Shown here piece by piece: positions 30,567-63,869 of a stretch of 64,000 nucleotides of DNA; within the stretch, counting starts at the first letter, position 1, and every line of letters begins with the position of its first letter. A program made the translations under genes and the position numbers. Source of the DNA: a virus; the IMG/VR virus record IMGVR_UViG_3300047170_000049, positions 95,289 through 159,288 of that record. One strand, given 5' to 3'. Below the pieces are notes generated by a model. That model worked only from the letters and a program-made list of their open reading frames with translations. It was not told the origin of the DNA and ran no database searches.

Positions 30567-30901
30567 CGCCTGAAGAGAAGGAATTAGAGAAACAAGCTAA
30601 ATTATTTAAAGCCGTCTTATATAGACGAGTTAATGCCATACGCCCTGAAATAAATATTGACCTAAGTATGCAAAAACGTGGTATTAGATTTAATGACAAT
30701 CAATTTATCTTTGATAAGATAGTTGAGGCAGTTACGGACTTTAGATTGCAAAGTAATGCGGCATTTGACCCTACAAGCAATCCCACGGACTTTCTGCCCC
30801 AAACGGTCACCGCTGGCATATACGACCGCCTAATTATTGATACCTTGTTTGTGTGCTCTAAAGCTGATTTTATTTATGAACAGGATTTGAAGTACCACTA
30901 A
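30563..30901 (+). CDS. hypothetical protein
   Basis: Coupled ORF. Confidence 0.55.
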   Translation: MTPEEKELEKQAKLFKAVLYRRVNAIRPEINIDLSMQKRGIRFNDNQFIFDKIVEAVTDFRLQSNAAFDPTSNPTDFLPQTVTAGIYDRLIIDTLFVCSKADFIYEQDLKYH

Positions 30902-31143
30902 TGGACTTTAAAGTAGGCGATTACGTTGAAACTAGCGAATATGTGGGTAAGGTAATTCACTTAGATGGGAATGAAATCCACATAGACCCTATTTATTTCT
31001 TACGGGCCAGTGAGATGAACACTGACCAAGGAATGAGAATAGATGTTATTCACAAAGGGTCTTCATTTTGGAAGTACGAATTAAGATTATTGCAAGTTAA
31101 GTGGGCAGACTTCAAGCGCCTGCACGAGTTATTATATGCGTAG
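30901..31143 (+). CDS. small SH3/KOW-like protein, C-terminal helix family
   Basis: MDFKVGDYV...FKRLHELLYA. Confidence 0.55.
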   Translation: MDFKVGDYVETSEYVGKVIHLDGNEIHIDPIYFLRASEMNTDQGMRIDVIHKGSSFWKYELRLLQVKWADFKRLHELLYA

Positions 31144-31963
31144 TTGGATTTTTTCAATTTTGTTCTTATCGAGCACTGTCTGGGCAACACCCAGCATAAT
31201 CAAAGTCATGTCAATCGACACTGGCGTAGATGCCACCCAACCTTTAATTCAACAACATATTGACCCCAATGAAGTAGCTGCAGACCCTGCAAGCTATTCA
31301 GATGAACACGGTCATGGAACGCACATTGCTGGCATAATTCTTAAAGATGTTTGCCCACAAGTTAAGTTCTACTCATGTCGCTACTATTACAAAAACGTCC
31401 AAAACCCAATTCTTAAAACAAATGAGTGTTACGAAAAAGCCCTTAACCTTGGAATTAACATCATCAATTATTCGTCCGCTGGTACTGACCCAAATTTAGC
31501 AGAATATGACCTAATAAAAAAACTAATCGACAACCATGTGACTTTTGTAACCGCTGCAGGTAACAACGGGGCTAAAATTGTAAAGCTAAGTAAGGCGGCC
31601 ATAGCCTATTTAATCACATATCGAAATTGTGAATACACAGACTACGCCGCTTTACATTCAAAACAATGCTACGAAAACTCACTCGAAACAAAAAATAAGA
31701 TTTGGGACACAGAAGCTCTTATTGCAGATGAATTCCCTGCAGGTTACGACATACCTGGAATAGAAGCTATAGGCAATGTGTGCGATGAATTTCACGCATG
31801 GAATCAATCATGCTTCGTAAGTAACTCTGGGGCCGACTTAGTAAAAGAAGTCGGTGATGGCATTACTTCACTTCTCCCTAATGGAAGAAAAGGTAAGATG
31901 AGTGGAACTTCACAAGCCGCTGCCGTACACACAAACAAAATATTGAAGGCCCTATGTCAGTAA
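31136..31963 (+). CDS. exported subtilisin-like S8 peptidase
   Basis: Signal peptide; IDTG, HGTHIAG, AAGN, SGTSQAA. Confidence 0.88.
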   Translation: MRSWIFSILFLSSTVWATPSIIKVMSIDTGVDATQPLIQQHIDPNEVAADPASYSDEHGHGTHIAGIILKDVCPQVKFYSCRYYYKNVQNPILKTNECYEKALNLGINIINYSSAGTDPNLAEYDLIKKLIDNHVTFVTAAGNNGAKIVKLSKAAIAYLITYRNCEYTDYAALHSKQCYENSLETKNKIWDTEALIADEFPAGYDIPGIEAIGNVCDEFHAWNQSCFVSNSGADLVKEVGDGITSLLPNGRKGKMSGTSQAAAVHTNKILKALCQ

Positions 31964-32259
31964 AAAAATTCATCTGGAAGTACGGCCTTACCGCAATTGC
32001 AGCCTTCATGACCGCCTACAACAAGGTTTATGAAAAAGTTCGATGGATTGTTAAGTGGCATAAGTTCAAAGTGGGAGATTGGATTTTTGAGAAGCATTGC
32101 GTGGCTAAGGTTCTAGCTGTTGGTTGGAACACTTACCAACTTAAGATGATTACAAAAGAAGGGGTTTTTATTTTCGTGGCCCCGAAGAAGATGGCTGAAA
32201 AAGCCTACAAAAAAATAGATAAGAAGCACCTACAAGCCGTGCTGGTTATCTATGAGTAA
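31954..32259 (+). CDS. small SH3/KOW-like protein
   Basis: FKVGDWI...HLQAVLVIYE. Confidence 0.5.
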   Translation: MSVKKFIWKYGLTAIAAFMTAYNKVYEKVRWIVKWHKFKVGDWIFEKHCVAKVLAVGWNTYQLKMITKEGVFIFVAPKKMAEKAYKKIDKKHLQAVLVIYE

Positions 32260-32267
32260 GGAGTAAA

Positions 32268-32492
32268 ATGCGAGCTAACAAAAATGATTACGTTATTTGT
32301 GTGGATGATAATTCACCCATCGACCATGCAAACAAAAGTCCAGTGTTAAAATTGGGTGAACTATATCAAATTCTTGAAGTACAGCACTACCCAGGTTCTG
32401 GGACGTGCATTTATAAAGTTAAAAACACTAATACAGGTAAGAGTGATTGGTTTCATGCCGACCGCTTCACCTTTACGAAAAGAGAAACATGA
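32268..32492 (+). CDS. small SH3-like protein
   Basis: NDYVICV...LKLGELYQI...WFHADRF. Confidence 0.55.
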   Translation: MRANKNDYVICVDDNSPIDHANKSPVLKLGELYQILEVQHYPGSGTCIYKVKNTNTGKSDWFHADRFTFTKRET

Positions 32493-32686
32493 TGTTCCTA
32501 CTAGCTATTTCCTTAACCTTTCTTTGCTGTTTTTATTTTGGCACCATGCTTGGCTTATGGTTCAGTGATAAAATCACTCGTGACCGTATCAAAGGTCTGC
32601 GCGAGCTATACGAGAGTGAGCACAATTTCCTGGCCAAACAAATTGGGGAATTAAAAAATGAAATCGCCAAAATTAAAGGAAAATGA
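32447..32686 (+). CDS. small membrane-anchored coiled-coil protein
   Basis: TM then coiled coil; start probably ATG 32489. Confidence 0.5.
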   Translation: MVSCRPLHLYEKRNMMFLLAISLTFLCCFYFGTMLGLWFSDKITRDRIKGLRELYESEHNFLAKQIGELKNEIAKIKGK

Positions 32687-32942
32687 CGCAGTATTTTATC
32701 TAGAGCAAAAGAGGCTTTGGGTTGTGACTAGCGTCTTTCAAAATACCGTATCTGGTCCGTGGATGTATCGCATACGCGAGGAATACGTTCCAGGGTTTGC
32801 ACTAGTGAATCGTAAGCATGAATTTGTTAAACAAGCCTTAGAGCAAGATGAGTTTAATAAAACTTATAAGACTGCAATCTTAAAGAACGGCTCATACAAC
32901 GTCGCAGATGTTTTAAGTTTAGCAGACACACTTTTTGGGTGA
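32658..32942 (+). CDS. small protein, C-terminal helix family
   Basis: LKENDAV...VLSLADTLFG. Confidence 0.5.
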   Translation: MKSPKLKENDAVFYLEQKRLWVVTSVFQNTVSGPWMYRIREEYVPGFALVNRKHEFVKQALEQDEFNKTYKTAILKNGSYNVADVLSLADTLFG

Positions 32943-32945
32943 CAT

Positions 32946-33194
32946 ATGGCTTTAGGACCTTTTAGATGGAATCAAGCATACAATAATCAATCTGCATTCT
33001 ACGATGTCCTTAGTGCAAATTATCGCACTAGTTGGCAGACTGATAAGCAGATACTACAAAACCCCACTGGAGTAAATACTGCTCAGGCGCTAGAGGCTAT
33101 TTGCAGAACACTTGCAGAAATTACTGAGCTTATAGAAACAAATCAATTCAGTGAGGCTGAACTGCAACTGGCCCAACTTCTCTATAAAAAATGA
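32946..33194 (+). CDS. small protein, C-terminal helix family
   Basis: FSEAELQLAQLLYKK. Confidence 0.55.
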   Translation: MALGPFRWNQAYNNQSAFYDVLSANYRTSWQTDKQILQNPTGVNTAQALEAICRTLAEITELIETNQFSEAELQLAQLLYKK

Positions 33195-33421
33195 GAGATT
33201 TTAAAGAAGGCGACTTCGTGCAAACGAGCGCCACCAGTGACATCTTCTATAAGATTATCTCTGTTAAATACTACGAAGACCTGTTAGCTGAAAACGAAGT
33301 AGTCCTACTTCGTTTAGATAATTACATGACAATCAACATACCTCTATTCGCTTTTAACACCACGTCGTGGCGTCCTGTCACACAAGAACAAAAAGAATTT
33401 TTATCTTTACTATTTTCTTAA
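33191..33421 (+). CDS. small SH3/KOW-like protein, C-terminal helix family
   Basis: FKEGDFV...RPVTQEQKEFLSLLFS. Confidence 0.55.
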   Translation: MRDFKEGDFVQTSATSDIFYKIISVKYYEDLLAENEVVLLRLDNYMTINIPLFAFNTTSWRPVTQEQKEFLSLLFS

Positions 33422-33524
33422 ATCGGTTATTATTAGGTCATGCCTAGTTAATACGGTGCTGGGTTTGGCATAACTACTTGATTTGACTACACTTTAAAAA
33501 TCGAAAATAAAGTTACTTATTTCC

Positions 33525-33551
33525 TAAAGTTTTTAACGGTTATGCCGAAGA
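33525..33551 (+). promoter_or_regulatory. sigma28 (FliA)-type promoter
   Basis: TAAA-N15(GTTT...)-GCCGAAGA. Confidence 0.75.
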
Positions 33552-33591
33552 GATATTGAAAGTTGAAACTTAATCTTTAAAGGAGTAGTTA

Positions 33592-34758
33592 ATGAATATC
33601 AACACATTTAAGAAAGCCGTCCCGTTCCTGTTCAAAGCGGAAGTGGTGCCCTTTGTTTGGGGTCCTGCAGGCGTAGGTAAAACCACTGCGATGAGACAAG
33701 TGGCCGAGGAACTTGGCTACGGTCTTATTGTGTTCCATTTGGGTCAAATGGGCGACGTAGGTGATTTGATTGGTTTGCCTGACATTGTGTACGAAACTGA
33801 CCCAGAAAAGATTAAAGCTGGTAATGGCAAACGTAAGGGTTACACTACGTTCATGCCTCCAGAATGGGTGCCCACTGAAGGTAAGTGGATTATCTTCTTT
33901 GACGAATTGAACCGCGCACGCCGTGACTTGCTCCAAGCCGTGTTCCAACTTATCCTTGAGCGCCGCACACACTCCATTGAGTTACCTCCTGAAACACGCT
34001 TAGTGGCCGCTGGTAACCCTAACACGGATGAATTCACCGTCACGGACATTACCGACGGAGCTTTCATGGACCGTTTTTGCCACATTAAATTGACATCAGA
34101 AACTGGCGAATGGTTAGAGTTTGCTAAGAAGAGCGCATACGCTCCTGAAGTTATTGGGTTCATTCAACAGAACTATAATAGCCTTGGTAACGATATGCCA
34201 GCTTTTGACCTGGAACGTAAGCCTTCACCCCGCTCATGGGATGCAGTCTCACGCTTGGTCAAGACTGAAATTGACACTGACCTTCTCCTAGACCTTGCCA
34301 CTGGACTATTAGGCGTTGCCCCTGCCACCGCGTTCATTGAACACATTAAGAACGCTGAGAAGCCAGTTAAGGCCGAAGAAGTGCTAAACAATTTTAGCGT
34401 TGTTAAAGCCACCATAACCCGCTTTAGCGACCCTTTGAACCCAAGACAGGACTTGCTCAAGGTTACGATTGATGACCTCTTAAAGCTCCTTGAGACGCAA
34501 AAGAGCGTTAGTTCTGCCCAGGTCCATAACGTTGTTGACTTCTTCATGACCATTCCCCTTGAAATGGCCTTCTTTGCCTCCAAAACCTTGTTCACAATCC
34601 AGGATTGGATGAAGCACATGGTAGCCCGTAAAGACTTTATTGCTCACCTTGATGGAGTTAAACCCATGAAGGATAAGCTCAAAAAGCTTGAAGCAGAAAG
34701 AATTGCGCAAGAGGCTGAAAAGAATAAGCTTTCTGGTGGCACCGATTCTGGTATTTAA
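33592..34758 (+). CDS. MoxR-like AAA+ ATPase
   Basis: WGPAGVGKT, FFDELNRA, AAGNP, DRF, PSPRSW. Confidence 0.88.
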   Translation: MNINTFKKAVPFLFKAEVVPFVWGPAGVGKTTAMRQVAEELGYGLIVFHLGQMGDVGDLIGLPDIVYETDPEKIKAGNGKRKGYTTFMPPEWVPTEGKWIIFFDELNRARRDLLQAVFQLILERRTHSIELPPETRLVAAGNPNTDEFTVTDITDGAFMDRFCHIKLTSETGEWLEFAKKSAYAPEVIGFIQQNYNSLGNDMPAFDLERKPSPRSWDAVSRLVKTEIDTDLLLDLATGLLGVAPATAFIEHIKNAEKPVKAEEVLNNFSVVKATITRFSDPLNPRQDLLKVTIDDLLKLLETQKSVSSAQVHNVVDFFMTIPLEMAFFASKTLFTIQDWMKHMVARKDFIAHLDGVKPMKDKLKKLEAERIAQEAEKNKLSGGTDSGI

Positions 34759-34761
34759 TCC

Positions 34762-34788
34762 TAAAGTTTTATAGGGAAATACCGAATA
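34762..34788 (+). promoter_or_regulatory. sigma28 (FliA)-type promoter
   Basis: TAAA-N15(GTTT...)-ACCGAATA. Confidence 0.7.
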
Positions 34789-34808
34789 TTAGAATGCAAC
34801 TGACACTA

Positions 34809-34843
34809 GCTCTATGGATGGAGCGTACCCCAAGGATGGGGTA
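34809..34843 (+). promoter_or_regulatory. tandem CsrA/RsmA-type ANGGA hairpins in 5' leader
   Basis: GCTCT-ATGGAT-GGAGC and TACCCC-AAGGAT-GGGGTA. Confidence 0.65.
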
Positions 34844-34875
34844 AATCGAGACCGCCAAAACAATGAGGGGTTAAA

Positions 34876-36054
34876 ATGATAGACGAAGCAATCATGTACC
34901 TAATCCAAAACAAGCCGTTCTACGCTCACTTGGTTATGGGGATGCGCAAAGAGTTTACTGACCGCGTTCCTACCGCTGGCGTGAACATCACGGACAAGGT
35001 TAATTTGTTGATTAACCCTAACTTCTGGAAGTCAATGAATGCCATAGAGCAAGCTGCCATTCTTGAGCACGAATGCTTGCATGTGGTCATGAATCACTTC
35101 AAACGCCGTGAGCACCGCAAACCCCGTCTTTACAACATTGCAGCGGACATGGCCATTAACGAATATATTAAAGGTCTTCCCAAAGAAATTAAAATCTTGG
35201 ATAAAAAAGGCAATCCAGTTATTAACTCTAAGACTGGTGAACAGGTTACAGGCAAAACTGTATTCCCTGCCGACTACCAACTGCCTTCACGACAAACTTC
35301 TGAGTTTTACTATGAAGAGCTTCAAAAACAACAAAATGATAAACAAAAGAGCGAAGGTGAGCCAGAATATCAACCTGGCGGTGACACCATTGATGACCAT
35401 GATTGCTGGGATGAAAGCATTGATAATGACGAGGTTATTGAAGAGAAAATCAAGAACCTAGTTAAGCCTGCAATGGAAGAAGCGCGTAAAGCTGGTAATA
35501 TGCCTTCAGAAATTTCTAAGCTGATTGACCGCTTATTCCACAAACCTAAAGACTGGCGTAAAGACCTCCAGAAGTTTGCAGCTAAGACCACTGAAGTTAT
35601 TGGCGATACATCACGCAAAGTGCGTAACCGCCGATATGGAATCATCTTCCCTGGTTATGTTAAGAAAGAAAAACTCCGCTTGGTTGTGGCCGTAGACACT
35701 TCAGGTTCAGTGAGCCAAGAAGAGCAAACCCAGTTCATGGCCGAGATTCACAAAATTCACCAACAAGGCGCTACCGTGTTTATCATGGAAGCCGATGCAG
35801 CGGTTCACGCCGTATATGAATACGACCCTAAGAAGCCCATTAAGTTTAAGGGTGGTGGTGGAACTGCATTTGGTCCAGTATTTGAAAAAGCTACCGAGCT
35901 TAACCCAGATGGTCTTATTTACATGACCGACGGTGATGACTGGGGTCCAGAAGCCAAGAAGCCAGCTTATCCGGTTATGTGGGCTCTTCTCCGTGGACGC
36001 GATGTGCGCTACAAATGGGGTTCAAAAACTTTCATTGATGTGAAGAAAAAATGA
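34876..36054 (+). CDS. metallopeptidase plus vWA domain protein (DUF2201-like MoxR partner)
   Basis: EHECLH, NIAADMAIN, DTSGS MIDAS, GGGGT.F, TDG. Confidence 0.85.
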   Translation: MIDEAIMYLIQNKPFYAHLVMGMRKEFTDRVPTAGVNITDKVNLLINPNFWKSMNAIEQAAILEHECLHVVMNHFKRREHRKPRLYNIAADMAINEYIKGLPKEIKILDKKGNPVINSKTGEQVTGKTVFPADYQLPSRQTSEFYYEELQKQQNDKQKSEGEPEYQPGGDTIDDHDCWDESIDNDEVIEEKIKNLVKPAMEEARKAGNMPSEISKLIDRLFHKPKDWRKDLQKFAAKTTEVIGDTSRKVRNRRYGIIFPGYVKKEKLRLVVAVDTSGSVSQEEQTQFMAEIHKIHQQGATVFIMEADAAVHAVYEYDPKKPIKFKGGGGTAFGPVFEKATELNPDGLIYMTDGDDWGPEAKKPAYPVMWALLRGRDVRYKWGSKTFIDVKKK

Positions 36055-36389
36055 GCTACCGTACCTTCACTTTAGAAGATGTTATAGAGCAAAAAATTTT
36101 CATGAAAGACGGGGTGGCTTACAAAGCCATTGCGTTTTGCGAACACCCTACAATTATTCTTGAAAATATCAAGACGGGTGAGCAGGAGCATCATGTGGTT
36201 CATTGCTTGAATATTCAGGCTTTCAAGCCACTAGGCCCATGTAGAGATTGTGGCGGCACCGGCAAGACCCATTATTGGGGCAGACCTGATGATGAAATGC
36301 AATGCCAATTTTGTAAAGGCGTTGGTGAGATTTTAAATTCAGAAGATTTGCGAGATTACTTTAAACTTAGGAAGCTTCTCCGTGGATAA
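36051..36389 (+). CDS. DnaJ-type Zn-finger small protein
   Basis: CRDCGGTG...CQFCKGVG; tail DYFKLRKLL. Confidence 0.6.
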   Translation: MSYRTFTLEDVIEQKIFMKDGVAYKAIAFCEHPTIILENIKTGEQEHHVVHCLNIQAFKPLGPCRDCGGTGKTHYWGRPDDEMQCQFCKGVGEILNSEDLRDYFKLRKLLRG

Positions 36390-36552
36390 ATGTGGCGATT
36401 GTGGTGGGCAAGGCTGGTATGCAGTTCATCAAGGTTTTGACCCACCAGAGCAAGTACAATGTGAATTATGTGAAGGGTTTGGTGAAATCCTAACCCCCGA
36501 GGAAATGGGTCGTTACCTGCAACTGTGTGACATACTATATGGAAGTGTGTAA
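36382..36552 (+). CDS. DnaJ-type Zn-finger small protein (not in ORF track)
   Basis: GTG start; MDKCGDCGGQG...CELCEGFGEILTPEEMGRYLQLCDILYGSV. Confidence 0.65.
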   Translation: MDKCGDCGGQGWYAVHQGFDPPEQVQCELCEGFGEILTPEEMGRYLQLCDILYGSV

Positions 36553-36715
36553 AGCCTGTGATGGTCGTGGCATTATACAACGGGAAGTGTTTACTTATCA
36601 CCCACCCGCATGGGAAGAAGAACAGTGCGAACCTTGTTACGGCACCGGAATGGCCTTCTTAACTGAAGAAGAGTATGAGAATTACATCACACTTTGGAGA
36701 ATTTTGAATGAATAA
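36539..36715 (+). CDS. DnaJ-type Zn-finger small protein
   Basis: CKACDGRG...CEPCYGTG...LTEEEYENYITLWRILNE. Confidence 0.65.
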   Translation: MEVCKACDGRGIIQREVFTYHPPAWEEEQCEPCYGTGMAFLTEEEYENYITLWRILNE

Positions 36716-37259
36716 TTTAAAAGGCCAAAGATTTGGTCGATTAAAGGTCATTTCCAGGTCCACGAACGCATCTAGACGCGTCACCTGGTTATGTCAATGT
36801 GATTGCGGTAAGAACAAAATAATTAATGCGTCTAATTTAACTACAGGACGGTCCGCATCTTGTGGGTGCTTAAGAGTAGAAATATCGAAAAAGAAATTAA
36901 AAGCTGTTAAAAGAACCAAATTTGATAAAGGCGAATCTTCATTAAACGTGGTATTTTACAGATATAAGTACCAAGCGAAACGAAGAGGTATTGAGTTTAA
37001 TCTGACTAGAGACCAGTTTAAGGTTTTAACTAAAGAAGTGTGTCATTATTGTGGAGTATTGCCTGAAAAATCATTTAAAGGCCATCGTTCTAACGGCGAA
37101 TATGTATATAATGGAATTGACCGTATCAATTCTGATAAAGATTATACCCTGGATAATGTAGTCCCGTGCTGCGAAACATGCAATAAAGCTAAACTGCATC
37201 TATCCTATGATATTTTCTTAAATTGGGTGCGACGCATTGCACGGTATCAAGCGATATGA
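36708..37259 (+). CDS. HNH homing endonuclease-like protein
   Basis: GQRFGRLKV, WLCQCDCG, SCGC, CHYCG, GIDRINS..DY..DNVVPCC..CN..K. Confidence 0.8.
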   Translation: MNNLKGQRFGRLKVISRSTNASRRVTWLCQCDCGKNKIINASNLTTGRSASCGCLRVEISKKKLKAVKRTKFDKGESSLNVVFYRYKYQAKRRGIEFNLTRDQFKVLTKEVCHYCGVLPEKSFKGHRSNGEYVYNGIDRINSDKDYTLDNVVPCCETCNKAKLHLSYDIFLNWVRRIARYQAI

Positions 37260-37417
37260 GTAGTCCCTGCGATACTTGCGGTGGTTACGGCGAACACTAT
37301 GCCCCTGATGTATCAAAACCAGTATTGATAACCTGCTATGATTGCGACGGGACTGGATATGAGTTTACCCAGCAAGAAATGGAAGACTACTTAAAGCTGA
37401 AAAAAATCTTAGAATAA
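37256..37417 (+). CDS. DnaJ-type Zn-finger small protein
   Basis: CDTCGGYG...CYDCDGTG...FTQQEMEDYLKLKKILE. Confidence 0.65.
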   Translation: MSSPCDTCGGYGEHYAPDVSKPVLITCYDCDGTGYEFTQQEMEDYLKLKKILE

Positions 37418-37686: not shown

Positions 37687-38017
37687 GGAGTTACTCATGA
37701 CACGACTTTTATATAAATCAAACGATACTGGCCTTTTGGCTGCAAAGCAAATCATCACCCTTAAAGATGGTCGCAAAACCACCGTCTTGATTGACTCCAA
37801 TGCCCTTGAATTTAATGTGGTTGATATTGCTGATGCTACCATTTTAGCAGGTGGAACGGCCAAGAGTCTCCGCGAAGTTAAGTATGCGGCGCGAAAGACC
37901 TTACTGGAGCTTGGTGCAGATATTGGCATTGAAGTAAAGTCTGCCGTTAAGAAGTTTAATAACCTTATGAAGTCCGAGGGTTCAGGTGATACAGCTAGTA
38001 ACGAATCTTCTAATTAA
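37673..38017 (+). CDS. hypothetical protein
   Basis: AAGGAG RBS before ATG 37697. Confidence 0.6.
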   Translation: METNKELLMTRLLYKSNDTGLLAAKQIITLKDGRKTTVLIDSNALEFNVVDIADATILAGGTAKSLREVKYAARKTLLELGADIGIEVKSAVKKFNNLMKSEGSGDTASNESSN

Positions 38018-38483
38018 GTTCTGCGAGAAGACTGGCCGCGTGTTCAACATCACGGGCACTGGTGCAGATACGGATGTGTACTTAATACGGTATTACGTCA
38101 TTAGAAGCAAGTATTTTAACTTTTTCATTCATAAGTTCTTGCGTAGTGACCGTGATGATTTGCATGACCACCCATGGAACTTTGGAACGTATGTGGTTAA
38201 GGGTGGTTACACTGAACAAAACCTTAACCCTTATACGGGTAAGGTTGACTTATTCCCTAAAGAACGTAGCGTAAATAAGAACCGATGGGCCACGCGCAAG
38301 GCTGAAGCAGTTCATCGCGTTGTTGTAGATAAAGAGCTTACGGTAGACCAACAAGACCAAGCTACGATTACCCTATGCTTAACTGGCCGTACACGCCGTG
38401 AATGGGGTTTTATCAAAAATGGACAATGGATTAACTGGAAGAAATATTTAGGTCTTCCCGATGACACTGGGAGTAGAGGATAA
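37986..38483 (+). CDS. cupin-fold phage protein
   Basis: YLIRY, HDHPW, GGYTE, HRV, R.WGF. Confidence 0.65.
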   Translation: MIQLVTNLLIKFCEKTGRVFNITGTGADTDVYLIRYYVIRSKYFNFFIHKFLRSDRDDLHDHPWNFGTYVVKGGYTEQNLNPYTGKVDLFPKERSVNKNRWATRKAEAVHRVVVDKELTVDQQDQATITLCLTGRTRREWGFIKNGQWINWKKYLGLPDDTGSRG

Positions 38484-38630: not shown

Positions 38631-39026
38631 ATGAAAACCGTATTAGTTGTAGGGCGAAACCCTTCACAATTAAATACCGACCCAAGGATTCCCTTCATTG
38701 GTGCAAAGTGCCGCAAGACCCTTGCCCTATGGATTGGCGAGTTGCATGTTCCCTACCAGTTCCTGTTCGTAAATGCGATTGACGAAGTGGATGCGGTTTT
38801 CAATAGCGATACGATTCACGATGCCGCTTGCAAGCTTATTTGTGAGAAGTACGACGCTCAAGCCGATAAGGTTATTGTTTTAGGTAATGATGCTGAGAAG
38901 GCGGCTAAGGCTGCCAAGACGGATTACTTTAAGCTTCCACACCCAAGCGGTCGTAACCGCAAGCTGAACGATAAAAGATTCATCTCACGCGAACTTAAAA
39001 AGTGCAGGGAGTATTTAGTAAAATAA
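38631..39026 (+). CDS. uracil-DNA glycosylase-like protein
   Basis: VGRNPS, VIVLG, LPHPSGRNR. Confidence 0.75.
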   Translation: MKTVLVVGRNPSQLNTDPRIPFIGAKCRKTLALWIGELHVPYQFLFVNAIDEVDAVFNSDTIHDAACKLICEKYDAQADKVIVLGNDAEKAAKAAKTDYFKLPHPSGRNRKLNDKRFISRELKKCREYLVK

Positions 39027-39505
39027 TGGAATTAGTTCTTTATCCAAACCCGATTTTGAGCACCCCAACAGAACCTGTCACGGAGTTCAATGAAGAGCTT
39101 CATAAGGCTTTGGATGAGATGGTGCCCATAATGGACAAGCACGATGGTATTGGACTAAGCGCAAACCAAGTGGGCATCAGCAAAAGTTTTTTCATCATGC
39201 GCGACCTTAAAGGCAAGCTTTGGGAAATTATTAACCCCAAGATTGTCCGTGTAGATGGGGTCCAGTGCTCACTTAAGGAAGGATGCTTAAGCCTCCCTGG
39301 TGTTAAAGCTGAAATTCCTAGACCCGAACAGCTTACAATAGAGTTTCAAGACCGTAATGGATACGAGATGAAGATTGGTGCATGGGGCATTGAAGCCGTG
39401 TGCATCTCCCACGAGATAGACCATCTTTTAGGTATCTTCTTTATGGAAAAATTAAGCCGCCAAGCTAGAAGAGCGGCGTTAAGAGAGGCAGGAAAGAATG
39501 AGTAA
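39026..39505 (+). CDS. def: peptide deformylase
   Basis: GIGLSANQVG, EGCLS, HEIDHL.G; TAATG overlap start. Confidence 0.93.
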   Translation: MELVLYPNPILSTPTEPVTEFNEELHKALDEMVPIMDKHDGIGLSANQVGISKSFFIMRDLKGKLWEIINPKIVRVDGVQCSLKEGCLSLPGVKAEIPRPEQLTIEFQDRNGYEMKIGAWGIEAVCISHEIDHLLGIFFMEKLSRQARRAALREAGKNE

Positions 39506-41917: not shown

Positions 41918-42241
41918 ATGATTAACGTAACCGAGGATGCAATACGACAAATTGAATACTTGATGCGTTCAGAAGGGAAGACTGATTGGTCCCTTAGAGT
42001 AGCGTGTCAGGCAGGCGGCTGCAGTGGATATATGTACAAGCTTTCTTTTGCAGAGCTTCCCAATGAAGATGACCACATATTTATTAACGAAGGTGGTCTT
42101 AGCATCTTTGTAGATAAGAAGAGCCTTAAGCTTTTAGAGGGCGTTGTCCTTGACTATACCGATGGTCTCGATGGCGCTGGCTTTGAGTTTCAAAACCCAA
42201 ATGCAACCCAAAGCTGTGGTTGCGGAAAGAGTTTCAGATGA
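41918..42241 (+). CDS. iscA: A-type Fe-S carrier (IscA/ErpA/HesB)
   Basis: GGCSG, LDY, F.NPNA..SCGCGKSF. Confidence 0.92.
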   Translation: MINVTEDAIRQIEYLMRSEGKTDWSLRVACQAGGCSGYMYKLSFAELPNEDDHIFINEGGLSIFVDKKSLKLLEGVVLDYTDGLDGAGFEFQNPNATQSCGCGKSFR

Positions 42242-42627
42242 CACGTCAAACAAGCATTGATGCCTATAATTTAATAGTGGCAAGCGGTTCAATTACTGGT
42301 CGTAGATTAGAGGTTTATAACATTATTTATAACGGCGGTTCTCTTACTGCCGCTGAAATTGGCAAAGCCATGGGTTCTTATACCACGGCATTACATACAG
42401 CAATTAGAAACATACACGCTAGATTAACCGAATTGCGAGATATGGGTGCAATTTACGAAAAATCATTGAGAGTTTGTACCGTAACTGGAAAGACAGTAAT
42501 TGAATGGGCCATAACTGGCGATATGCCACAAAAGCTTCCTAAAAGAAAAACTAAAACTCAAATAATAAATGAACTTACTGCGAAAGTATTGGCGTTAGAA
42601 ACTAAGTTAAATAGCCTAGGTGCTTAA
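42220..42627 (+). CDS. winged-helix DNA-binding protein
   Basis: TSIDAY, LTAAEI, ARLTELRDMG; start likely ATG 42238. Confidence 0.55.
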   Translation: MRKEFQMTRQTSIDAYNLIVASGSITGRRLEVYNIIYNGGSLTAAEIGKAMGSYTTALHTAIRNIHARLTELRDMGAIYEKSLRVCTVTGKTVIEWAITGDMPQKLPKRKTKTQIINELTAKVLALETKLNSLGA

Positions 42628-43166
42628 TGGGCAAAATTAAAGATTTAACGGTGGACTCTCATGACGTTGCAGACGCAATTCGTGATGCCTTCAACTTTGG
42701 CAATAGATACTCACGCTCTGACCGTTCTGGTCCTGGGCCTTACACATTAAAACCTGGTGAAGAAAAACTTAAATACGACGAAGGCGCTATTCTCTGTATT
42801 AAACACTATGACGAAGAACAGTTTGTTCAAATCGGCAATGAGTATATGTACAGCGGTAGCCACAAGACAATTCAATACCGCGCATGGTCTTTTAAAACCC
42901 AATGCTGGGAATGGATTTGCTTGAATGATGAAGATATTGTTTCAAGTACAGATGTGAGACTTGCCACGCCCGATGAAGCTAACTTAGTTAAGAATTTATT
43001 TGAGCCAAGGCCAGAAGCTAAAGGCGTAATTACCTTAAACGATAGCTCAGGTTTTATGGATGGAATGGAAGTGACGGTTACTGGCCTCAATGGAGTAATT
43101 GAAGCTACGGTAAAGCTTGAAGGCAGTTCTGTTGAATTTATTCCGATTGATATTAAGATTACTTAA
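42627..43166 (+). CDS. hypothetical protein
   Basis: Internal RLATPDEANLVKNLFE, like the family tail. Confidence 0.55.
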   Translation: MGKIKDLTVDSHDVADAIRDAFNFGNRYSRSDRSGPGPYTLKPGEEKLKYDEGAILCIKHYDEEQFVQIGNEYMYSGSHKTIQYRAWSFKTQCWEWICLNDEDIVSSTDVRLATPDEANLVKNLFEPRPEAKGVITLNDSSGFMDGMEVTVTGLNGVIEATVKLEGSSVEFIPIDIKIT

Positions 43167-59103: not shown

Positions 59104-59466
59104 ATGAAAAAAGTATTAGTAATCGACGATGACTCAATGTTGCTCCAGTGCATGAAGCTGGTGCTAGAAAGCGAGCACTACGAGGTAGTGACGGCTAGCA
59201 ACGGACTGGAAGGCTTAGAAGCTCTGTCGGATGATATTGACCTTATCGTGCTGGACTTGTCAATGCCTGTAATGTCTGGGTCAGAATTTCATGACAAGCT
59301 GCGCGAGCAAGCCGACCTGGACCACATTCCAGTTGTCATCTTAAGCGGTCTTGAACGCCCTGACCCAATTGAATGCGTGGAGATTGTTAAAAAACCCATT
59401 AACGTTATGGATTTACTAGGGATTATTGGCATCTACACTTCAGATGAAAAAGGAGCGGCGGCTTAA
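59104..59466 (+). CDS. stand-alone response-regulator receiver (CheY-like)
   Basis: VLVIDDD, DLIVLDLSMP.MSG, ILSG, KKP. Confidence 0.9.
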   Translation: MKKVLVIDDDSMLLQCMKLVLESEHYEVVTASNGLEGLEALSDDIDLIVLDLSMPVMSGSEFHDKLREQADLDHIPVVILSGLERPDPIECVEIVKKPINVMDLLGIIGIYTSDEKGAAA

Positions 59467-59490
59467 CTTCACTATTTTTTAATAATGTGC

Positions 59491-59517
59491 TAAAGTTCTT
59501 TATGGTCTAGCCGATAG
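59491..59517 (+). promoter_or_regulatory. sigma28 (FliA)-type promoter
   Basis: TAAA-N15(GTTC...)-GCCGATAG. Confidence 0.82.
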
Positions 59518-59535
59518 GATAGATGTAACAAGGAG

Positions 59536-60243
59536 ATGGATATGTTAATCAAATTAACAGAGCAAGACCCTAAGTACATCGTAGACCTCACGGAGCATTT
59601 AATCAATCTTGGCGCTAAGTCCACTAACCAGCCTAACGTGTTAGAAGTGGAAGAGGCTTTCGACGTAGACCAATTCCATGGTGTTGAGAAACTTAGCAAT
59701 CTCCCTATTACTGATTACAAGGAAGAAATCAAATGGCTTCATGCTTACCATGGCAACTTTGAATTCTACCTCAGCTTGAAAACTCAATACGCCACCAAAG
59801 GCCGATTGAGCGATAAACAATGGGCTTCAGTAACCAAAGCAATTCAACGTGACCAGGCTCAAGCCGCACAAAAGGTTAACCAAAAGTTCTCAATAGAAGG
59901 TGGCACCGTAATTGTTCTCAAGAAATACTTCGCCCATGAGCTTGCTCAACAAGCTGGATGCGTAAGACCTCATTATGCGTTTGAAGTGGTCAAGGTTCAA
60001 GCTGAAACTGAGAAGGCGTATAGACTGACCTTGAAACTCACCGCACAGCGCACGACGCATTGCTCCGTATGTGGAATCAAATTGACGAACAAATCATCAG
60101 TCTCAACGGGCATTGGACCAATTTGCGCAGAAAAGTGGGGAATTCCTCAAACTTTAAAAGATTTGGCCGATAAGTTACAGACAACGGTGGAGGTCACTAG
60201 TTGGTTACCTAAAACTGCAATAAAGGAGCGATTTGGAAAATAA
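59536..60243 (+). CDS. DUF6011-like Zn-ribbon phage protein
   Basis: GRLSDKQ; CSVCG..LT...S...GIGPICA. Confidence 0.6.
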   Translation: MDMLIKLTEQDPKYIVDLTEHLINLGAKSTNQPNVLEVEEAFDVDQFHGVEKLSNLPITDYKEEIKWLHAYHGNFEFYLSLKTQYATKGRLSDKQWASVTKAIQRDQAQAAQKVNQKFSIEGGTVIVLKKYFAHELAQQAGCVRPHYAFEVVKVQAETEKAYRLTLKLTAQRTTHCSVCGIKLTNKSSVSTGIGPICAEKWGIPQTLKDLADKLQTTVEVTSWLPKTAIKERFGK

Positions 60244-60245
60244 CA

Positions 60246-60399
60246 TTCGATGATTTGGACCTGCCATCTACCTCTTCATAAGGTGAAGTCTTCGTGCCTG
60301 GGTACTAGGGTAGATGTGATTTGACCAATTTTTATTGTACCCAACCTGCGTGTGTCGGACCCGTGCATTCGTACTGTAACGAAGATAACGGGCATCGAG
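60246..60399 (+). ncRNA. pseudoknotted structured intergenic RNA of unknown class
   Basis: Six stems including a 7-bp pseudoknot (see findings); strand inferred from context. Confidence 0.65.
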
Positions 60400-60423
60400 A
60401 AAATTTAACAAAAGGAGTATTGT

Positions 60424-60723
60424 ATGCAAGGTACAGAAGGATTTATGGACAATCAGTGTGAACACTGTAAAAAACAATTTAGTGATTTAGAGCCTTATGG
60501 GATGGCTGGGAATATACCAGGCGATAGGAATGAAATTTACAGATTTCACATACTTAATGGCGGCATAGCAAATTCATGTTTTGTTAAAGCTTTTGCAAAA
60601 TTTAAAGTACCAAAAGGTTTTGGCCTTGCACTTCCTTTGGACGAAAGTACCATTTCTAAAAAAGCGAAAGAAGAGGCAATATCAAAACTAAAGCGTTTTA
60701 TTGATAAAGTTTACAAGGAATAG
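60424..60723 (+). CDS. hypothetical protein
   Basis: AAGGAG RBS. Confidence 0.6.
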   Translation: MQGTEGFMDNQCEHCKKQFSDLEPYGMAGNIPGDRNEIYRFHILNGGIANSCFVKAFAKFKVPKGFGLALPLDESTISKKAKEEAISKLKRFIDKVYKE

Positions 60724-60765
60724 AAAGCACATAAAGTTTGAAGTGGAACGAGTTGGAGATATTCA

Positions 60766-61131
60766 ATGAAAATTGCGATTGATGTTAAAGGCACACTAGA
60801 AGGTCCCAAGGGCGAAATCATTGCTGAAGCCGCTGCCGTATTAAAAGAACGCGGCCATGAGATTACGGTCTGGTCTAGCCTTCTCTCTTATGCCTACGAA
60901 TGGGTCAAGGGTGCAGGTGAATTCTACGAAATCAGTGGCAAGAAATGGCGACGTGACGTTGAGCCTGAAGAGTTCTATGATGTGGCCATTGAAGACGATG
61001 AGAACCTGGGTGAGATTTTGGCCGCCAACAAAGTCATATATGTTCACGAGTTCAACAGTGTCAATGAATTACTGGGCTTAATTACTGGGGAGAACAATGA
61101 AAACAATATTGACGTTAAGTCTGCTATTTAA
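60766..61131 (+). CDS. HAD-fold-like small protein
   Basis: IAIDVKGTL, VWSS, IEDD. Confidence 0.55.
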   Translation: MKIAIDVKGTLEGPKGEIIAEAAAVLKERGHEITVWSSLLSYAYEWVKGAGEFYEISGKKWRRDVEPEEFYDVAIEDDENLGEILAANKVIYVHEFNSVNELLGLITGENNENNIDVKSAI

Positions 61132-61266
61132 TGTGGTTGGGTACATCTACATAACGGCCTACAAGAAAGATGTGGCTTTTGAGCGAAGCATGGCCAACGC
61201 GCACATTGATATGCTTCACCACGCTTTGAATAGTGACGTTGCCTTTAAAAGGAGCTTGGCTAGTAA

Positions 61267-61596
61267 ATGAAAACGTTCCAACGCGGTGATTGGGTAACTC
61301 TTGTTCCATTTGAAGAATGGATTGGGTACTTGAGAGGCACTAGCGCCGACGGCAATCTTATTGGTGGTCTAGGGCCTGAATCCTTCCGTGAAGATTACAA
61401 CACAATCTTGAGTCGTAGGTCTGCCGTACAAATACTAAACACGCAAATGCACAACATCAAAGGCGTGGAATCTCAAACGGTGGCTATTGACCCGTTTAGG
61501 CCATTCCCTGAATACAGTGCAGAGATATTCCGTTTGCTTACACCAGAAGAGTTGGCCTTGGCAAAGCTTTTGTTTGATGACAAAAGGATAGCTTAA
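61267..61596 (+). CDS. SH3/KOW-like protein, C-terminal helix family
   Basis: FQRGDWV...RLLTPEELALAKLLF. Confidence 0.6.
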   Translation: MKTFQRGDWVTLVPFEEWIGYLRGTSADGNLIGGLGPESFREDYNTILSRRSAVQILNTQMHNIKGVESQTVAIDPFRPFPEYSAEIFRLLTPEELALAKLLFDDKRIA

Positions 61597-61874
61597 TGAC
61601 TTTAAAACGTAAATGGCAATTAGGGGACATCGTTAAAGCGAAGCACGATATGTTTTTGCACCCAGAATACACAACTGACATAACCAAAGCCATTATTATC
61701 CCTGCAGGTACCTTCCTTGAAATCCTAGAACGCTTTTCATTCCTAGGCAACGTTAGCAATATTTTGGTTGGTAAGACCATCCACGGTGCAATGTACGCAT
61801 ACATGGTTAGTCCCAGTGCCGTTGTGCCATTGACTCGTAAGGAGAATGAGATTGCAAGACTCTTATACTCTTAA
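61596..61874 (+). CDS. SH3/KOW-like protein, C-terminal helix family
   Basis: WQLGDIV...PLTRKENEIARLLYS. Confidence 0.6.
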   Translation: MTLKRKWQLGDIVKAKHDMFLHPEYTTDITKAIIIPAGTFLEILERFSFLGNVSNILVGKTIHGAMYAYMVSPSAVVPLTRKENEIARLLYS

Positions 61875-62100
61875 GTTCAAGCAAGGCGATTGGGTGATGT
61901 TTCGTGAAGGCGACGCATGGTGTGTGTGCAGGATAAAGCGTGCTGAAAAGATGCGTGGTGATTATAAGGTGCAATGGCTCTATGATAGCATCAACGCTAT
62001 CAGACAGCGTTATACGCTTATGAGCATTGACGAGACCGATGAAATGGGTCACAAGATGACCGACATGGAAATTAAACTCTTTAAGGTGTTATATGCCTAA
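61846..62100 (+). CDS. SH3/KOW-like protein, C-terminal helix family
   Basis: FKQGDWV...KMTDMEIKLFKVLYA. Confidence 0.6.
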   Translation: MRLQDSYTLKFKQGDWVMFREGDAWCVCRIKRAEKMRGDYKVQWLYDSINAIRQRYTLMSIDETDEMGHKMTDMEIKLFKVLYA

Positions 62101-62347
62101 GTTTAAGAAGGGTGACATCCTTTATATGGAAGAAGAATATTACGGTGCTATGAGTCGCCAACTGATTCAGGTTCTAGGCGTCGAGCCTTACCGTGATGGT
62201 TGGTACGATTATAAAGTGCAAATGATTGTAGACACTTCAGGCCAATACACTGGTAACCCAGATTATTTGCTGCAGGAGATTGTAGACCGTGATGCCATCA
62301 AACTCAATAGAACGCAGGTAAAACTGTTTAAATTGCTCTATACTTAA
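62093..62347 (+). CDS. SH3/KOW-like protein, C-terminal helix family
   Basis: FKKGDIL...KLNRTQVKLFKLLYT. Confidence 0.6.
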   Translation: MPKFKKGDILYMEEEYYGAMSRQLIQVLGVEPYRDGWYDYKVQMIVDTSGQYTGNPDYLLQEIVDRDAIKLNRTQVKLFKLLYT

Positions 62348-62360
62348 TTGCATTATTTCC

Positions 62361-62387
62361 TAAAGTTCTCCGTATTACTTCCGATAG
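62361..62387 (+). promoter_or_regulatory. sigma28 (FliA)-type promoter
   Basis: TAAA-N15(GTTC...)-TCCGATAG. Confidence 0.78.
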
Positions 62388-62404
62388 ATATATCAGGAGG
62401 TGTT

Positions 62405-63121
62405 ATGAACGTATTAATCACAATCGTTTTAACTTCGAGTTTATGGCTTATAGGCTGCGCTGGGAAGCCACCAGATTATTGCCAAATAGTTACGCCTGGG
62501 TCGCCTGTGTTCGTGCATAGCTTTGGCGATTCAATCACGGTAGGTGCAGGAGCGGACCATTTCTGTAATGGTTATCAAGCTTTATTCACTACGACGATTG
62601 GTGCGAACGGTGACGATGAGGGCATTAGCGGTTCTATGTTCGTAACCTCCACCTACAATATTATGTCTTGGTTTGTGCAAGTGCCTGAAAGTCAAGTGGT
62701 GGCCACGAACAATTACAAGACCCACGACTACGACATTAATACGGTATTGCCAGCATATAATGACGTTACGAACTTTGGCGCTGACCCAACACATTTAGCG
62801 CAATTTCAAGCTGATTTACTGGCAGCTTTGAGTTACACTGGTACTTTAGGAAAGATGACTTTAGTGGGTACAACGCTTTACGCATCGGATGTAATGCAGC
62901 CTGGAATACCGCTCCACACCAATGCTAACGTGGACCAATACGTTGCGGTGATTAAGTCAGTTGTTGCACAAGTTGCCGCCACTGGATTGCCTGTCTACTT
63001 AGTAGACACCAATGCGATTTACGACCCTAACACAATGTCATCAAATAACATTCACCCTGATAATTACGGGCACGCAGTAATTGCTCAGGCATTCATTGAA
63101 GCTTACGAGGCACACAAGTAA
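62405..63121 (+). CDS. SGNH/GDSL hydrolase lipoprotein
   Basis: AGGAGG then ATG 62405; lipobox LIGC; GDSIT, GISG, YND, NIHP...GH. Confidence 0.8.
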   Translation: MNVLITIVLTSSLWLIGCAGKPPDYCQIVTPGSPVFVHSFGDSITVGAGADHFCNGYQALFTTTIGANGDDEGISGSMFVTSTYNIMSWFVQVPESQVVATNNYKTHDYDINTVLPAYNDVTNFGADPTHLAQFQADLLAALSYTGTLGKMTLVGTTLYASDVMQPGIPLHTNANVDQYVAVIKSVVAQVAATGLPVYLVDTNAIYDPNTMSSNNIHPDNYGHAVIAQAFIEAYEAHK

Positions 63122-63122
63122 G

Positions 63123-63422
63123 ATGCGTAAAGACGATAAGTTCTTTGTTGAGACCGATGGTAGGCCCTTTGGGAGGCACGAACCTTATATCCTTGAGAAG
63201 CCTAAGTACGTTAAACTTAAAACGAATATGCAAGGCCGTAGCGAATGGTTATCACCAGATACCGTCTACCGCGTGACAGAAGCCATAATTGTTAATACCA
63301 GTAAAGGCGACCAAGAAACCTACGTCATTGATGGATTCCCAGGCATGAGCTTTGGCTACAGCTTGTTTGAGCATTTGGATTTAACCGACGAGGAAATAGC
63401 TTTGTGGCAAACATTGCAGTAG
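63123..63422 (+). CDS. small protein, C-terminal helix family
   Basis: LDLTDEEIALWQTLQ. Confidence 0.55.
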   Translation: MRKDDKFFVETDGRPFGRHEPYILEKPKYVKLKTNMQGRSEWLSPDTVYRVTEAIIVNTSKGDQETYVIDGFPGMSFGYSLFEHLDLTDEEIALWQTLQ

Positions 63423-63622
63423 GAGACATAATTGTCCACGATACCAAAGGTGTAGTGGCAAGTGTGGATAGCTGGAGTAGCGGCACCAAAGGTTGGGGTT
63501 TTCATTGCAATATGCTTTCTAAAAATCAATATCCACCACAATTCTATCTAGGCCCCGAGCCTAAGAACTGGCGCAAGATTAGTAATGAAGAGTATGCGCT
63601 TTGGAAGATATTGAATGAGTAA
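63404..63622 (+). CDS. SH3/KOW-like protein, C-terminal helix family
   Basis: IAVGDII...KISNEEYALWKILNE. Confidence 0.55.
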   Translation: MANIAVGDIIVHDTKGVVASVDSWSSGTKGWGFHCNMLSKNQYPPQFYLGPEPKNWRKISNEEYALWKILNE

Positions 63623-63869
63623 AATAGAATTAGACATGTTGATGCAATTCAGTTCTGAGAAGGCCCCTGAAGTGCTTTTTATGCGAGTTAAGGCTATAGA
63701 CCATTTAAAGCAAGAAGTCCTAATGAGCATCGTGTACACTAGCATAAGTAATGTTGGTCAAAGAGAATATTCTTTCACCATGGAATCTATTTTTAAAGAA
63801 TTGCAAGATGGTAGTTGCCGAGTTTGCAATGATGAAGAGGCTGATTTGCTAGAGACTCTATATGGGTGA
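63615..63869 (+). CDS. small protein, C-terminal helix family
   Basis: RVCNDEEADLLETLYG. Confidence 0.55.
   Translation: MSKIELDMLMQFSSEKAPEVLFMRVKAIDHLKQEVLMSIVYTSISNVGQREYSFTMESIFKELQDGSCRVCNDEEADLLETLYG

Follow-up and report, generated by a model that had tools for sequence, protein, structure and literature searches.

The window analyzed here, which comprises the final 64 kb of a 159,288-bp contig from an uncultured phage (hereafter G000; compared phage genomes are labeled G### and compared loci L###), carries arrays of small genes whose products share a short C-terminal helix, the tail, together with a gene pair encoding a MoxR-type AAA+ ATPase (33592-34758) and a VWA protein with an N-terminal zincin-like domain (34876-36054). 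The arrays flank this pair and are translationally coupled through overlaps of 4 to 8 nt, as an initial annotation made from the sequence alone had described. The core genes of G000 encode a DnaE-type polymerase, a gp32-like single-stranded DNA-binding protein (SSB), a UvsX-like recombinase, an SbcCD-like nuclease and a DnaB-like helicase, and the phage further encodes GroEL, ClpP and peptide deformylase. One array member overlooked in the initial annotation, an open reading frame (ORF) opening at 63862, crosses the contig junction into genome base 1 and continues to about base 95, ending ..ARLLYG; since this ORF spans both contig ends, the G000 record is a circular permutation. The array at the end of the window continues into 19 further tailed genes at genome positions 91-4761, forming with them a single array of ~28 genes, and the corresponding array is unbroken in the contig of the relative L160.

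The tail has the consensus [ST]-x-E-E-x-x-L-A-x-L-L-[YF]-x and is found at the ends of small proteins encoded by ~53-55 of the 247 genes (about one in five) in a crude whole-genome gene call of G000. Using a profile built from the phage's own tails, 53 of the 247 genes reached at least 4 bits with a match no more than 30 residues from the C-terminus, all of them encoding proteins of fewer than 200 aa. Neither the reversed proteome nor any of ten shuffled versions contained a match of at least 8 bits, and related proteomes likewise gave none. Furthermore, a generic hydrophobic regular expression was 13-fold enriched in the last 10 residues (51 of 2,470 positions, versus 75 of 47,485 internal ones), and the 3-mer LLY occurred 16 times at small-protein C-termini where 0.25 occurrences were expected (p 4e-24), with LLY, LYG and LLF each showing ~60- to 70-fold enrichment at small-protein ends (p 1e-22 to 1e-24).

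Within the window, we recognize 13 members with a clear tail and four with a weaker variant of it, besides an internal copy of doubtful standing. Members scoring at least 4.9 bits start at 30901, 31954, 32658, 32946, 33191, 36382, 37223, 61267, 61596, 61846, 62093, 63404 and 63615, and endings that are altered or fall below the threshold occur at 36051 (..LLRG), 36527 (..ILNE) and 63081 (..TLQ). All the C-terminal tails previously listed were recovered in the translations of their genes, and the earlier estimate of about 17 tailed proteins in the window was borne out, the set being larger genome-wide; the internal copy proposed at 42627 scores only 3.3 bits and is doubtful. The tail can be trailed by 6 to 26 extra residues. 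In one 122-aa protein encoded outside the window (genome 47109-47477; L063:109-477), an 18.5-bit tail is followed by 26 more residues, indicating that the tail need not sit at the extreme C-terminus.

Homology searches with ten members against Pfam and PHROGs returned nothing above noise. A profile search of a 5.8-billion-protein collection matched only G000's own proteins, and an exhaustive HMMER search returned four orthologues from close relatives along with long multi-repeat proteins. No core-function protein of at least 150 aa (polymerase, helicase or sigma-like) ends in the tail in G000, G001 or G007, and our literature search turned up no published account of a tail library among phage mini-proteins.

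The tail core is selected at the protein level, and the start codon and the ribosome-binding, or Shine-Dalgarno (SD), site of the next gene exert a further influence on the final two or three residues of the tail. In 14-17 members, the Tyr codon and the G that follows it supply the ATG of the downstream gene (TAT-G-nn-TRA). The aromatic residue is Tyr in 14 and Phe in three of the members whose aromatic codon contains the next start, as opposed to two and ten, respectively, of the uncoupled members (Fisher p 7e-4), defined as those with no gene within 15 nt downstream (n=12). Similarly, the codon at position -3 is the SD-like GAG, AAG or AGG in 12 of 17 coupled members versus 2 of 12 uncoupled ones. 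The 12 uncoupled members nonetheless retain the L-L-aromatic ending, mostly as L-L-Phe, and the core, composed of an N-capping Ser or Thr, acidic residues, Leu at +7, +10 and +11 and an aromatic residue at +12, persists without coupling. Conservation reaches ~13 codons upstream of the stop while synonymous codons vary freely, with all Leu codons in use, and the same amino-acid core recurs across phages of 28-48% G+C. The retention of the core in the absence of coupling and with free Leu codons is what identifies it as a protein feature.

The bodies that remain after removal of the tail show almost no similarity to each other in all-against-all BLAST and jackhmmer comparisons, consistent with the differing N-terminal parts reported in the initial annotation. 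The exceptions are an F-x-x-G-D first strand, present in about half of the members, and the four Zn-ribbon genes adjoining the VWA gene (36051-37417), which constitute one true paralogue group with 35-40% identity and a tail one turn longer. Each of these four genes encodes two copies of CxxCxGxG, in keeping with the DnaJ-type Zn fingers noted before; the resemblance is at the level of the finger motif, no J domain being present. The bodies encompass beta-rich F-x-x-G-D proteins, CxxCxGxG Zn ribbons and helical proteins, and a related locus (L164) adds an ankyrin-repeat type. The latter is a 111-aa protein (L164:9590-9925; Pfam Ank_2), whose gene lies just upstream of that for VWA on a metagenome contig of 89.6 kb from NCBI, and it ends in that lineage's tail, ..K-L-A-E-L-L-Y-F-K.

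Structural prediction with AlphaFold2 (AF2) yielded a compact fold for the 84-aa member at 62093 (predicted local distance difference test [pLDDT] 85; predicted template modeling score [pTM] 0.72), composed of three strands, a helix and the tail helix at residues 73-83. The model of the Zn-ribbon member at 36527 is poor (pLDDT 49, with only the tail helix at residues 47-61 confident) and hence uninformative on how the tail packs. Both models place the tail in one helix, 11-15 residues long. Fold comparisons of the 62093 model gave a best E of 0.08 with Foldseek against the PDB (chromodomains at E 0.1-0.7, none significant), a best Z of 4.6 with VIA-align against the PDB, and template modeling (TM) scores of 0.5 or less in an Atlas fold search, and the profile search produced multi-stretch matches in long proteins. 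Thus, of the SH3/KOW-like starts proposed in the initial annotation, the F-x-x-G-D start holds for about half of the members, whereas the SH3/KOW fold is not established.

To judge from sequence comparison, possession of a tail library characterizes individual lineages, and the tail sequence changes concertedly across the entire library. In the close relative L160, whose VWA protein is 89% identical to that of G000, a syntenic array of ~37 genes is tailed nearly throughout, and about half of these genes have no detectable orthologue in G000. Across 16 G000/L160 orthologue pairs, identity is 56% in the tail versus 42% in the body (p 4e-4). In the 105-115-kb phages G001 and G007, we detected no mini-protein body in common with G000, and 20-25 small proteins end in ..L-L-Y-[GDEK]. 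The G000 profile gives no score to these tails, which were revealed by k-mer enrichment. Endings of the form ..[VI]-L-[YF]-G are carried by ~30 proteins of G011 and 13 of G015, and the ..L-[YF]-G version is found in G001, G007, G011, G015, L163 and L166. Other versions are T-P-L-G-K-L-L-Y in L167, L-D-R-L-V-L-G-L in L169, ..L-[ED]-T-[LI]-x-Y-M-K-[RK]-x-K in 11 proteins of G012 (nine exact matches versus 0.11 expected) and ..L-[DE]-x-I-x-x-L-K-[RDN]-L-K-x-x-K in ~10 proteins of G013; in G014, no tail is obvious. In the cultured Vibrio phage pVa5, which is N4-like, ~15-35 early or middle small proteins end in ..L-K-L-x-x-L-L-E-[ED] (strict count 15, versus 0.38 expected; p 6e-20), where Thr, Glu and the three Leu residues are spaced as in G000 and position 12 is the sole difference. 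Across lineages, this position is occupied by Y/F, E/D or L. In its loci L171 (KX889068.2, 42776-63918) and L173 (63919-78145), tailed ORFs surround the MoxR and VWA-metallopeptidase genes; the pVa5 genome paper makes no mention of a tail library. A crude reduced-alphabet metric registers a C-terminal excess in G000, G011, G001, G015, pVa5, L160, L165, L167 and L169, and since it is too blunt for small loci and variable tail distances, L161-L164, L166, L168, L170 and G013 were judged by reading the sequences. The set-wide change of tail between related phages points to one co-evolving reader or, alternatively, to self-recognition.

A candidate for such a reader lies between the arrays. The MoxR protein matches Pfam AAA_5 (PF07728; E 5.6e-8, above the cut-off) and PHROG 1297 (E 5.8e-63), and its Walker A (G-x-x-G-x-G-K-T) and Walker B (D-E) motifs are invariant with respect to G001. 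[quoted passage not shown] The two genes are 117 nt apart in the window and follow the same order in G001, G007, L161, L162, L165-L170 and N4. They belong to the phage MoxR/VWA-metallopeptidase pair (PHROG 1297/1314; N4 gp24/gp25) noted in jumbo phages by Iyer et al. (2021; PMC7824862), who proposed a role in virion assembly and structural-protein processing; the literature on this phage pair mentions no library of tailed small proteins, and N4 has the pair and no library. The pair is present in 391 cultured phage records. A blastn search of the window's MoxR/VWA region against cultured phages gave no match. In G007, the VWA-zincin gene (62894-65290; L068:2894-5290, minus strand) contains an intein with a homing-endonuclease-like insert within HExxH, giving 798 rather than 392 aa, and the location of this intein is a sign that the site matters. 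The split match of an 861-aa VWA frame in G014 (11545-13962) probably reflects the same intein arrangement. The MoxR, VWA-zincin and dCTP deaminase/dUTPase genes are neighbors in N4 (L174 9938-12819; gp24-gp26) and at L163:7814-11458.

The new result to emerge from comparison of these sequences is an association of tail libraries with the MoxR/VWA-zincin pair. Loci were sampled solely for encoding a related MoxR or VWA protein, and of the ~22 genomes or loci reached through either gene, 12-14 have a tail library at a distance of no more than 10 kb. A library adjoins the pair in L161, L163, L164, L165, L166, L167, L169, G001, G007, G011, G015 and pVa5, while L162, L168 and L170 are weak in this respect. 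The gene directly downstream of the VWA gene, overlapping or abutting it, is itself tailed in G000, L163, L164, L165, L166 and G011. The relatives of G000 provide a second line of evidence: its structural and replication genes are 25-55% identical to those of four large phages (G002-G005), which show neither tail enrichment nor MoxR/VWA. Only the MoxR, VWA and dUTPase genes of G000 occur in subclade A (G001, G007, G011 and G015) yet in none of G002-G005; VWA and dUTPase match all four subclade A phages and MoxR three, having been missed in G011 because it falls off the contig end. Moreover, the G000 VWA protein is 40% identical to those of subclade A, but 31-34% to that of G013 and 25% to that of G014, members of the same clade with another tail or none. 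G000 thus has in common with subclade A both a specific type of MoxR/VWA and a specific type of tail. The co-occurrence suggested in the initial annotation is therefore upheld by the libraries found beside VWA-zincin genes in many unrelated backbones and by the pair-less, tail-less core relatives, but it does not extend to N4, to Thermus phage phiFa or to G014, which have the pair without a visible library.

A complex prediction combining VWA, MoxR and the 84-aa member at 62093 scored 0.52 (runs 0.52, 0.50 and 0.66), compared with 0.19 for the best of three controls, in which VWA was replaced, and 0.00 for the two partner replacements. Agreement among the runs extends to at least 75% of contacts, and the pLDDT of the partner is no lower than 76. 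Of 80 solved complexes, 58 attain the mark for this score, as do 2 of 110 mismatched pairs, with scores of 0.60 or less accounting for only 7 of the 80 solved complexes and for both passing mismatches; these calibration counts hold roughly, the job having used our own alignments and three chains. For the MoxR/VWA part of the multimer test suggested in the initial annotation, the prediction thus provides weak support.

As a description, a common handle on interchangeable domains is well supported by these data: ~55 small, rapidly turning-over proteins each have their own domain and one shared, capped amphipathic helix. We consider it probable that this tail docks on one hub, and comparative genomics together with a single, weak complex prediction tentatively designates the MoxR/VWA-zincin pair as the best single candidate. 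The reader would then be the phage's MoxR AAA+ ATPase acting together with the VWA protein bearing the zincin-like HExxH domain, and the tail would bring each mini-protein to this remodeling or peptidase machine as a client, as a cut substrate, or as an adaptor with a bound target. Contact might be made by an acidic tail residue completing the MIDAS site or by the C-terminal helix entering the MoxR ring. The adaptor-library idea of the initial annotation is retained here as a constant tail on unrelated bodies with MoxR/VWA as the leading hub, while GroEL, one of the hubs it listed, is discarded because none of the other fully compared tail-bearing phages encodes it. A more specific version, a phage equivalent of F-box or ankyrin-PRANC proteins in which variable domains grip host or rival targets, the helix plugs into MoxR/VWA-zincin and the machine remodels or cuts the target, with tail and reader co-evolving to give each lineage a private code, is a long shot on present data.

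Several observations weigh against the MoxR/VWA-zincin pair as the reader. The complex score falls in a band that the tool rates more often wrong than right unless the guess is likely beforehand, and the job reported no interface, so the contact may lie outside the tail. The pair occurs without a visible tail library in N4 (gp24/gp25), phiFa, G014 and L058-L060, so that it has another or a broader job. Conversely, G012 has a tail library and no VWA match, its contig being 94% complete with a break that falls in the accessory region. The pair was the route by which most tail-bearing genomes were found, accessory-gene co-transfer could yield the same association without a physical link, and the dUTPase and a CYTH-like gene show a similar phyletic profile. 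In G000 itself, most tailed genes are far from the pair, with the main array 25 kb away. Lastly, the tail helix of the 62093 model is confidently placed (pLDDT 84-91), which would be compatible with packing on its own domain.

The explanation that survives best beside this one is that the tail docks on another partner, such as the host beta clamp, RNA polymerase, a chaperone or an AAA+ protease, including the phage's ClpP with an unfoldase, and that MoxR/VWA merely co-travels; we regard this as a serious if unlikely possibility. The tail resembles hydrophobic-acidic C-terminal docking peptides, among them the clamp-binding ends of T4 gp43, gp55 and gp33 (PMC2988020), which likewise are short, interchangeable among unrelated proteins and directed to one hub. 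However, T4 has three such proteins as opposed to ~fifty, and it places the motif on its polymerase and sigma-like factors, whereas no polymerase, sigma-like factor or other core protein of G000 ends in the tail. Furthermore, Pfam revealed no clamp gene in G000, with no DNA_PPF or DNA_pol3_beta_3 match at E up to 1 in a search confined to recognizable, phage-encoded clamps, and tail-bearing phages use different replisomes, the polymerase being of family A in G001 and DnaE-type in G000. The T4 ends are thus an analogy, not a mechanism. The pair without tails in N4, phiFa and G014, and the tails without a detected VWA in G012, fit a different hub, but sharp set-wide tail differences among related phages are unexpected if that hub is a conserved host protein. 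ClpP, also named in the initial annotation, is encoded by every tail-bearing genome compared in full, in favor of such a hub, yet equally by the tail-less G002-G005; GroEL fails for the reason given above.

Several other identities and partners were tried and rejected. Among identities for the tail, the first helix of LuxR or sigma region 4 gave no Pfam signal at E up to 1, the beta-clamp motif Q-L-x-L-F is a pattern misfit without the Gln, and a membrane-targeting helix is at odds with an acidic tail. Among partners, the 257-aa gene after the polymerase has no family match as a clamp and a helix-rich N-terminal part by eye, and the conserved 208-aa neighbor has no Pfam match and, by our own reading, an ExExK start typical of CYTH enzymes.

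It is rather unlikely that the tail has no common partner at all and is instead the integral capping helix of an old, hyper-divergent paralogue family, maintained by folding and coupling. The F-x-x-G-D first strand that many members share besides the tail, the compact AF2 model with its well-placed tail helix, and the tandem arrays, which duplication would give, all agree with this explanation, as do the overlapping start codon and SD site that account for part of the ending and the only moderately better conservation of the tail in orthologue pairs. Nevertheless, the same tail is found on Zn ribbons, on helical bodies and on an ankyrin-repeat protein, and the tail core is the same in G000 and in G001 and G007 in spite of their lack of orthologous bodies. 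In G001 and L167 the motif is preceded by Gly or Pro, precluding a long helix, and in other members 6-26 residues may follow it. Genome-wide tail switches would also require concerted change, which one co-evolving reader explains more easily.

That the tails bind each other through homotypic helix contacts, assembling co-translated mini-proteins into mixed oligomers or a condensate, is improbable: although the amphipathic helix has a broad hydrophobic face, translational coupling provides near-equal dosage and self-recognition would also produce concerted tail change across a genome, a 12-residue helix is short for a stable zipper and the short versions flanked by Pro or Gly (G001, L167) are unlike coiled-coil elements. 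Finally, a purely nucleic-acid signal, be it for translation initiation at the downstream gene (ribosome-binding site and start codon) or for recombination where cassettes join, is suggested by the embedded ATG and by the -3 codons of coupled members, but it is largely refuted for the core by the twelve uncoupled members that keep the motif, by ~13 conserved codons with free synonymous variation and by the constancy of the amino-acid core over the full range of G+C contents, so that we deem it highly improbable beyond the last two or three residues.

For the proposal that the MoxR/VWA-zincin pair receives the tail, the closest known counterparts include the FxSxx-COOH-type peptide-processing systems of bacteria (Kaur et al. 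2020; PMC7159879), in which vWA-MoxR systems are linked to a zincin and to a small protein that diverges fast and whose conserved part is its C-terminal peptide, a combination that G000 shares. Each of those systems has a single precursor or a small number of them, cleavage releases a peptide that is unstructured, a radical-SAM enzyme often takes part, and the setting is bacterial conflict, whereas G000 encodes ~55 folded mini-proteins with a helical tail and a zincin fused to the VWA protein. The FxSxx, RxD or poly-acidic C-terminal motifs are not found in the G000 tails. VWA MIDAS sites bind peptides by taking a ligand residue from the bound peptide or target (PMC7159879, PMC13036017), and in the cryo-electron microscopy structure of NorQD the C-terminus of NorD docks on the pore loops of NorQ, a MoxR protein, while the MIDAS takes a ligand from the target (PMC13036017). 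By analogy, both docking modes could let a MoxR/VWA machine read an acidic-hydrophobic C-terminal tail. In NorQ-NorD, however, it is the VWA partner itself that supplies the docking C-terminus, and the system serves a single dedicated client. We know of no multi-client tag for MoxR/VWA chaperones.

F-box proteins, poxvirus ankyrin/PRANC adaptors and SspB, with its XB tail on ClpX, combine a variable binding domain with a constant docking element. The likeness to the G000 mini-proteins is one of design only, echoed by the tailed ankyrin protein of L164, and there is no sequence or fold relation. An F-box binds Skp1 through ~45 residues folded into three helices, and the G000 tail, as a single short helix, falls outside that family.

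If the tail has a common reader, one-fifth of the genes of G000 would acquire a shared functional context in place of the label 'hypothetical protein', as would a comparable share of the genes in many other phages, a cultured Vibrio phage among them. Candidate clients would likewise emerge for the phage MoxR/VWA-metallopeptidase pair, whose function is unexplained despite its wide distribution. Should the tail be an address label, it would constitute a portable tag amenable to simple fusions, and the variable domains would amount to a natural collection of small host-protein binders. With pVa5 and Vibrio splendidus available in culture, the question can be tested directly.

Table 1. Tailed mini-protein genes, the putative reader pair and interspersed genes in the 64-kb window (window coordinates; endings are C-terminal residues, bits are tail-profile scores).
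Feature	Position	Strand	Evidence
Tailed mini-protein, 80 aa, F-K-V-G-D start, ..LHELLYA	30901..31143	+	11.0 bits
Subtilase (Peptidase_S8), signal peptide, not tailed, inside upstream array	31136..31963	+	PF00082, E 1.5e-16
Weak tail member, 101 aa, ..AVLVIYE	31954..32259	+	5.8 bits; L161 orthologue retains ..ATIYDS
Tailed mini-protein, 94 aa, ..LADTLFG	32658..32942	+	6.2 bits
Tailed mini-protein, 82 aa, no F-x-x-G-D start, ..LAQLLYKK	32946..33194	+	13.6 bits
Tailed mini-protein, 76 aa, ..FLSLLFS, immediately before MoxR	33191..33421	+	11.4 bits
MoxR-type AAA+ ATPase, candidate reader	33592..34758	+	Pfam AAA_5; PHROG 1297
VWA protein, N-terminal zincin-like domain (DUF2201_N + DUF2201), candidate reader	34876..36054	+	Pfam; PHROG 1314
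Zn-ribbon mini-protein (2 x CxxCxGxG), 112 aa, long-form ..FKLRKLLRG	36051..36389	+	Start overlaps VWA stop by 4 nt
Zn-ribbon mini-protein, 56 aa, ..LCDILYGSV	36382..36552	+	11.1 bits; alignment with paralogues
Zn-ribbon mini-protein, 62 aa, ..LWRILNE	36527..36715	+	Alignment with paralogues
HNH endonuclease inserted into Zn-ribbon array, non-member	36708..37259	+	PHROG 374, E 6e-20
Zn-ribbon mini-protein, 64 aa, ..LKKILE	37223..37417	+	4.9 bits; alignment with paralogues
179-aa protein, doubtful internal tail-like stretch at residues ~110-125	42627..43166	+	3.3 bits
Tailed mini-protein, 109 aa, tail followed by 6 residues	61267..61596	+	18.0 bits; L160 orthologue shares 11/13 tail residues
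Tailed mini-protein, 92 aa	61596..61874	+	13.9 bits
Tailed mini-protein, 84 aa	61846..62100	+	15.6 bits; orthologue P0032: tail 12/13, body 46%
Tailed mini-protein, 84 aa, modeled member and complex partner	62093..62347	+	10.2 bits
Variant tail, ..ALWQTLQ	63081..63422	+	1.5 bits; L160 orthologue ends ..ALWHLLK
Variant tail, 72 aa, ..ALWKILNE	63404..63622	+	5.5 bits
Tailed mini-protein, 84 aa, ..LLETLYG	63615..63869	+	14.6 bits
5' part of junction-spanning member, ..ARLLYG at genome bases 1-~95	63862..64000	+	Unbroken array in L160

Two genes of the arrays in Table 1 are not members of the tailed set. Homologues of the subtilase are encoded near the MoxR/VWA pair in G001, G007, L161, L166 and L170. 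The HNH endonuclease gene at 36708-37259 splits the Zn-ribbon array, and in the relative L161 an HNH-like gene is located immediately after the VWA gene instead.

Elsewhere in the window, auxiliary genes encode GroEL, a cysteine-dioxygenase-like protein, peptide deformylase, an IscA/HesB-like protein and a stand-alone response-regulator receiver domain (5176-6990, 37986-38483, 39002-39505, 41918-42241 and 59104-59466). The gp32-like SSB (19758-20789) has a tail-like, acidic-hydrophobic ending, ..S-K-D-E-Q-D-L-V-A-Q-F-L-N-R-G, which receives no score from the tail profile. At 26971-28990, a classical AAA ATPase (335 aa) is encoded two genes upstream of a ClpP-family protease, an order that is identical in L161, and the two may constitute an unfoldase-protease pair of the phage's own.

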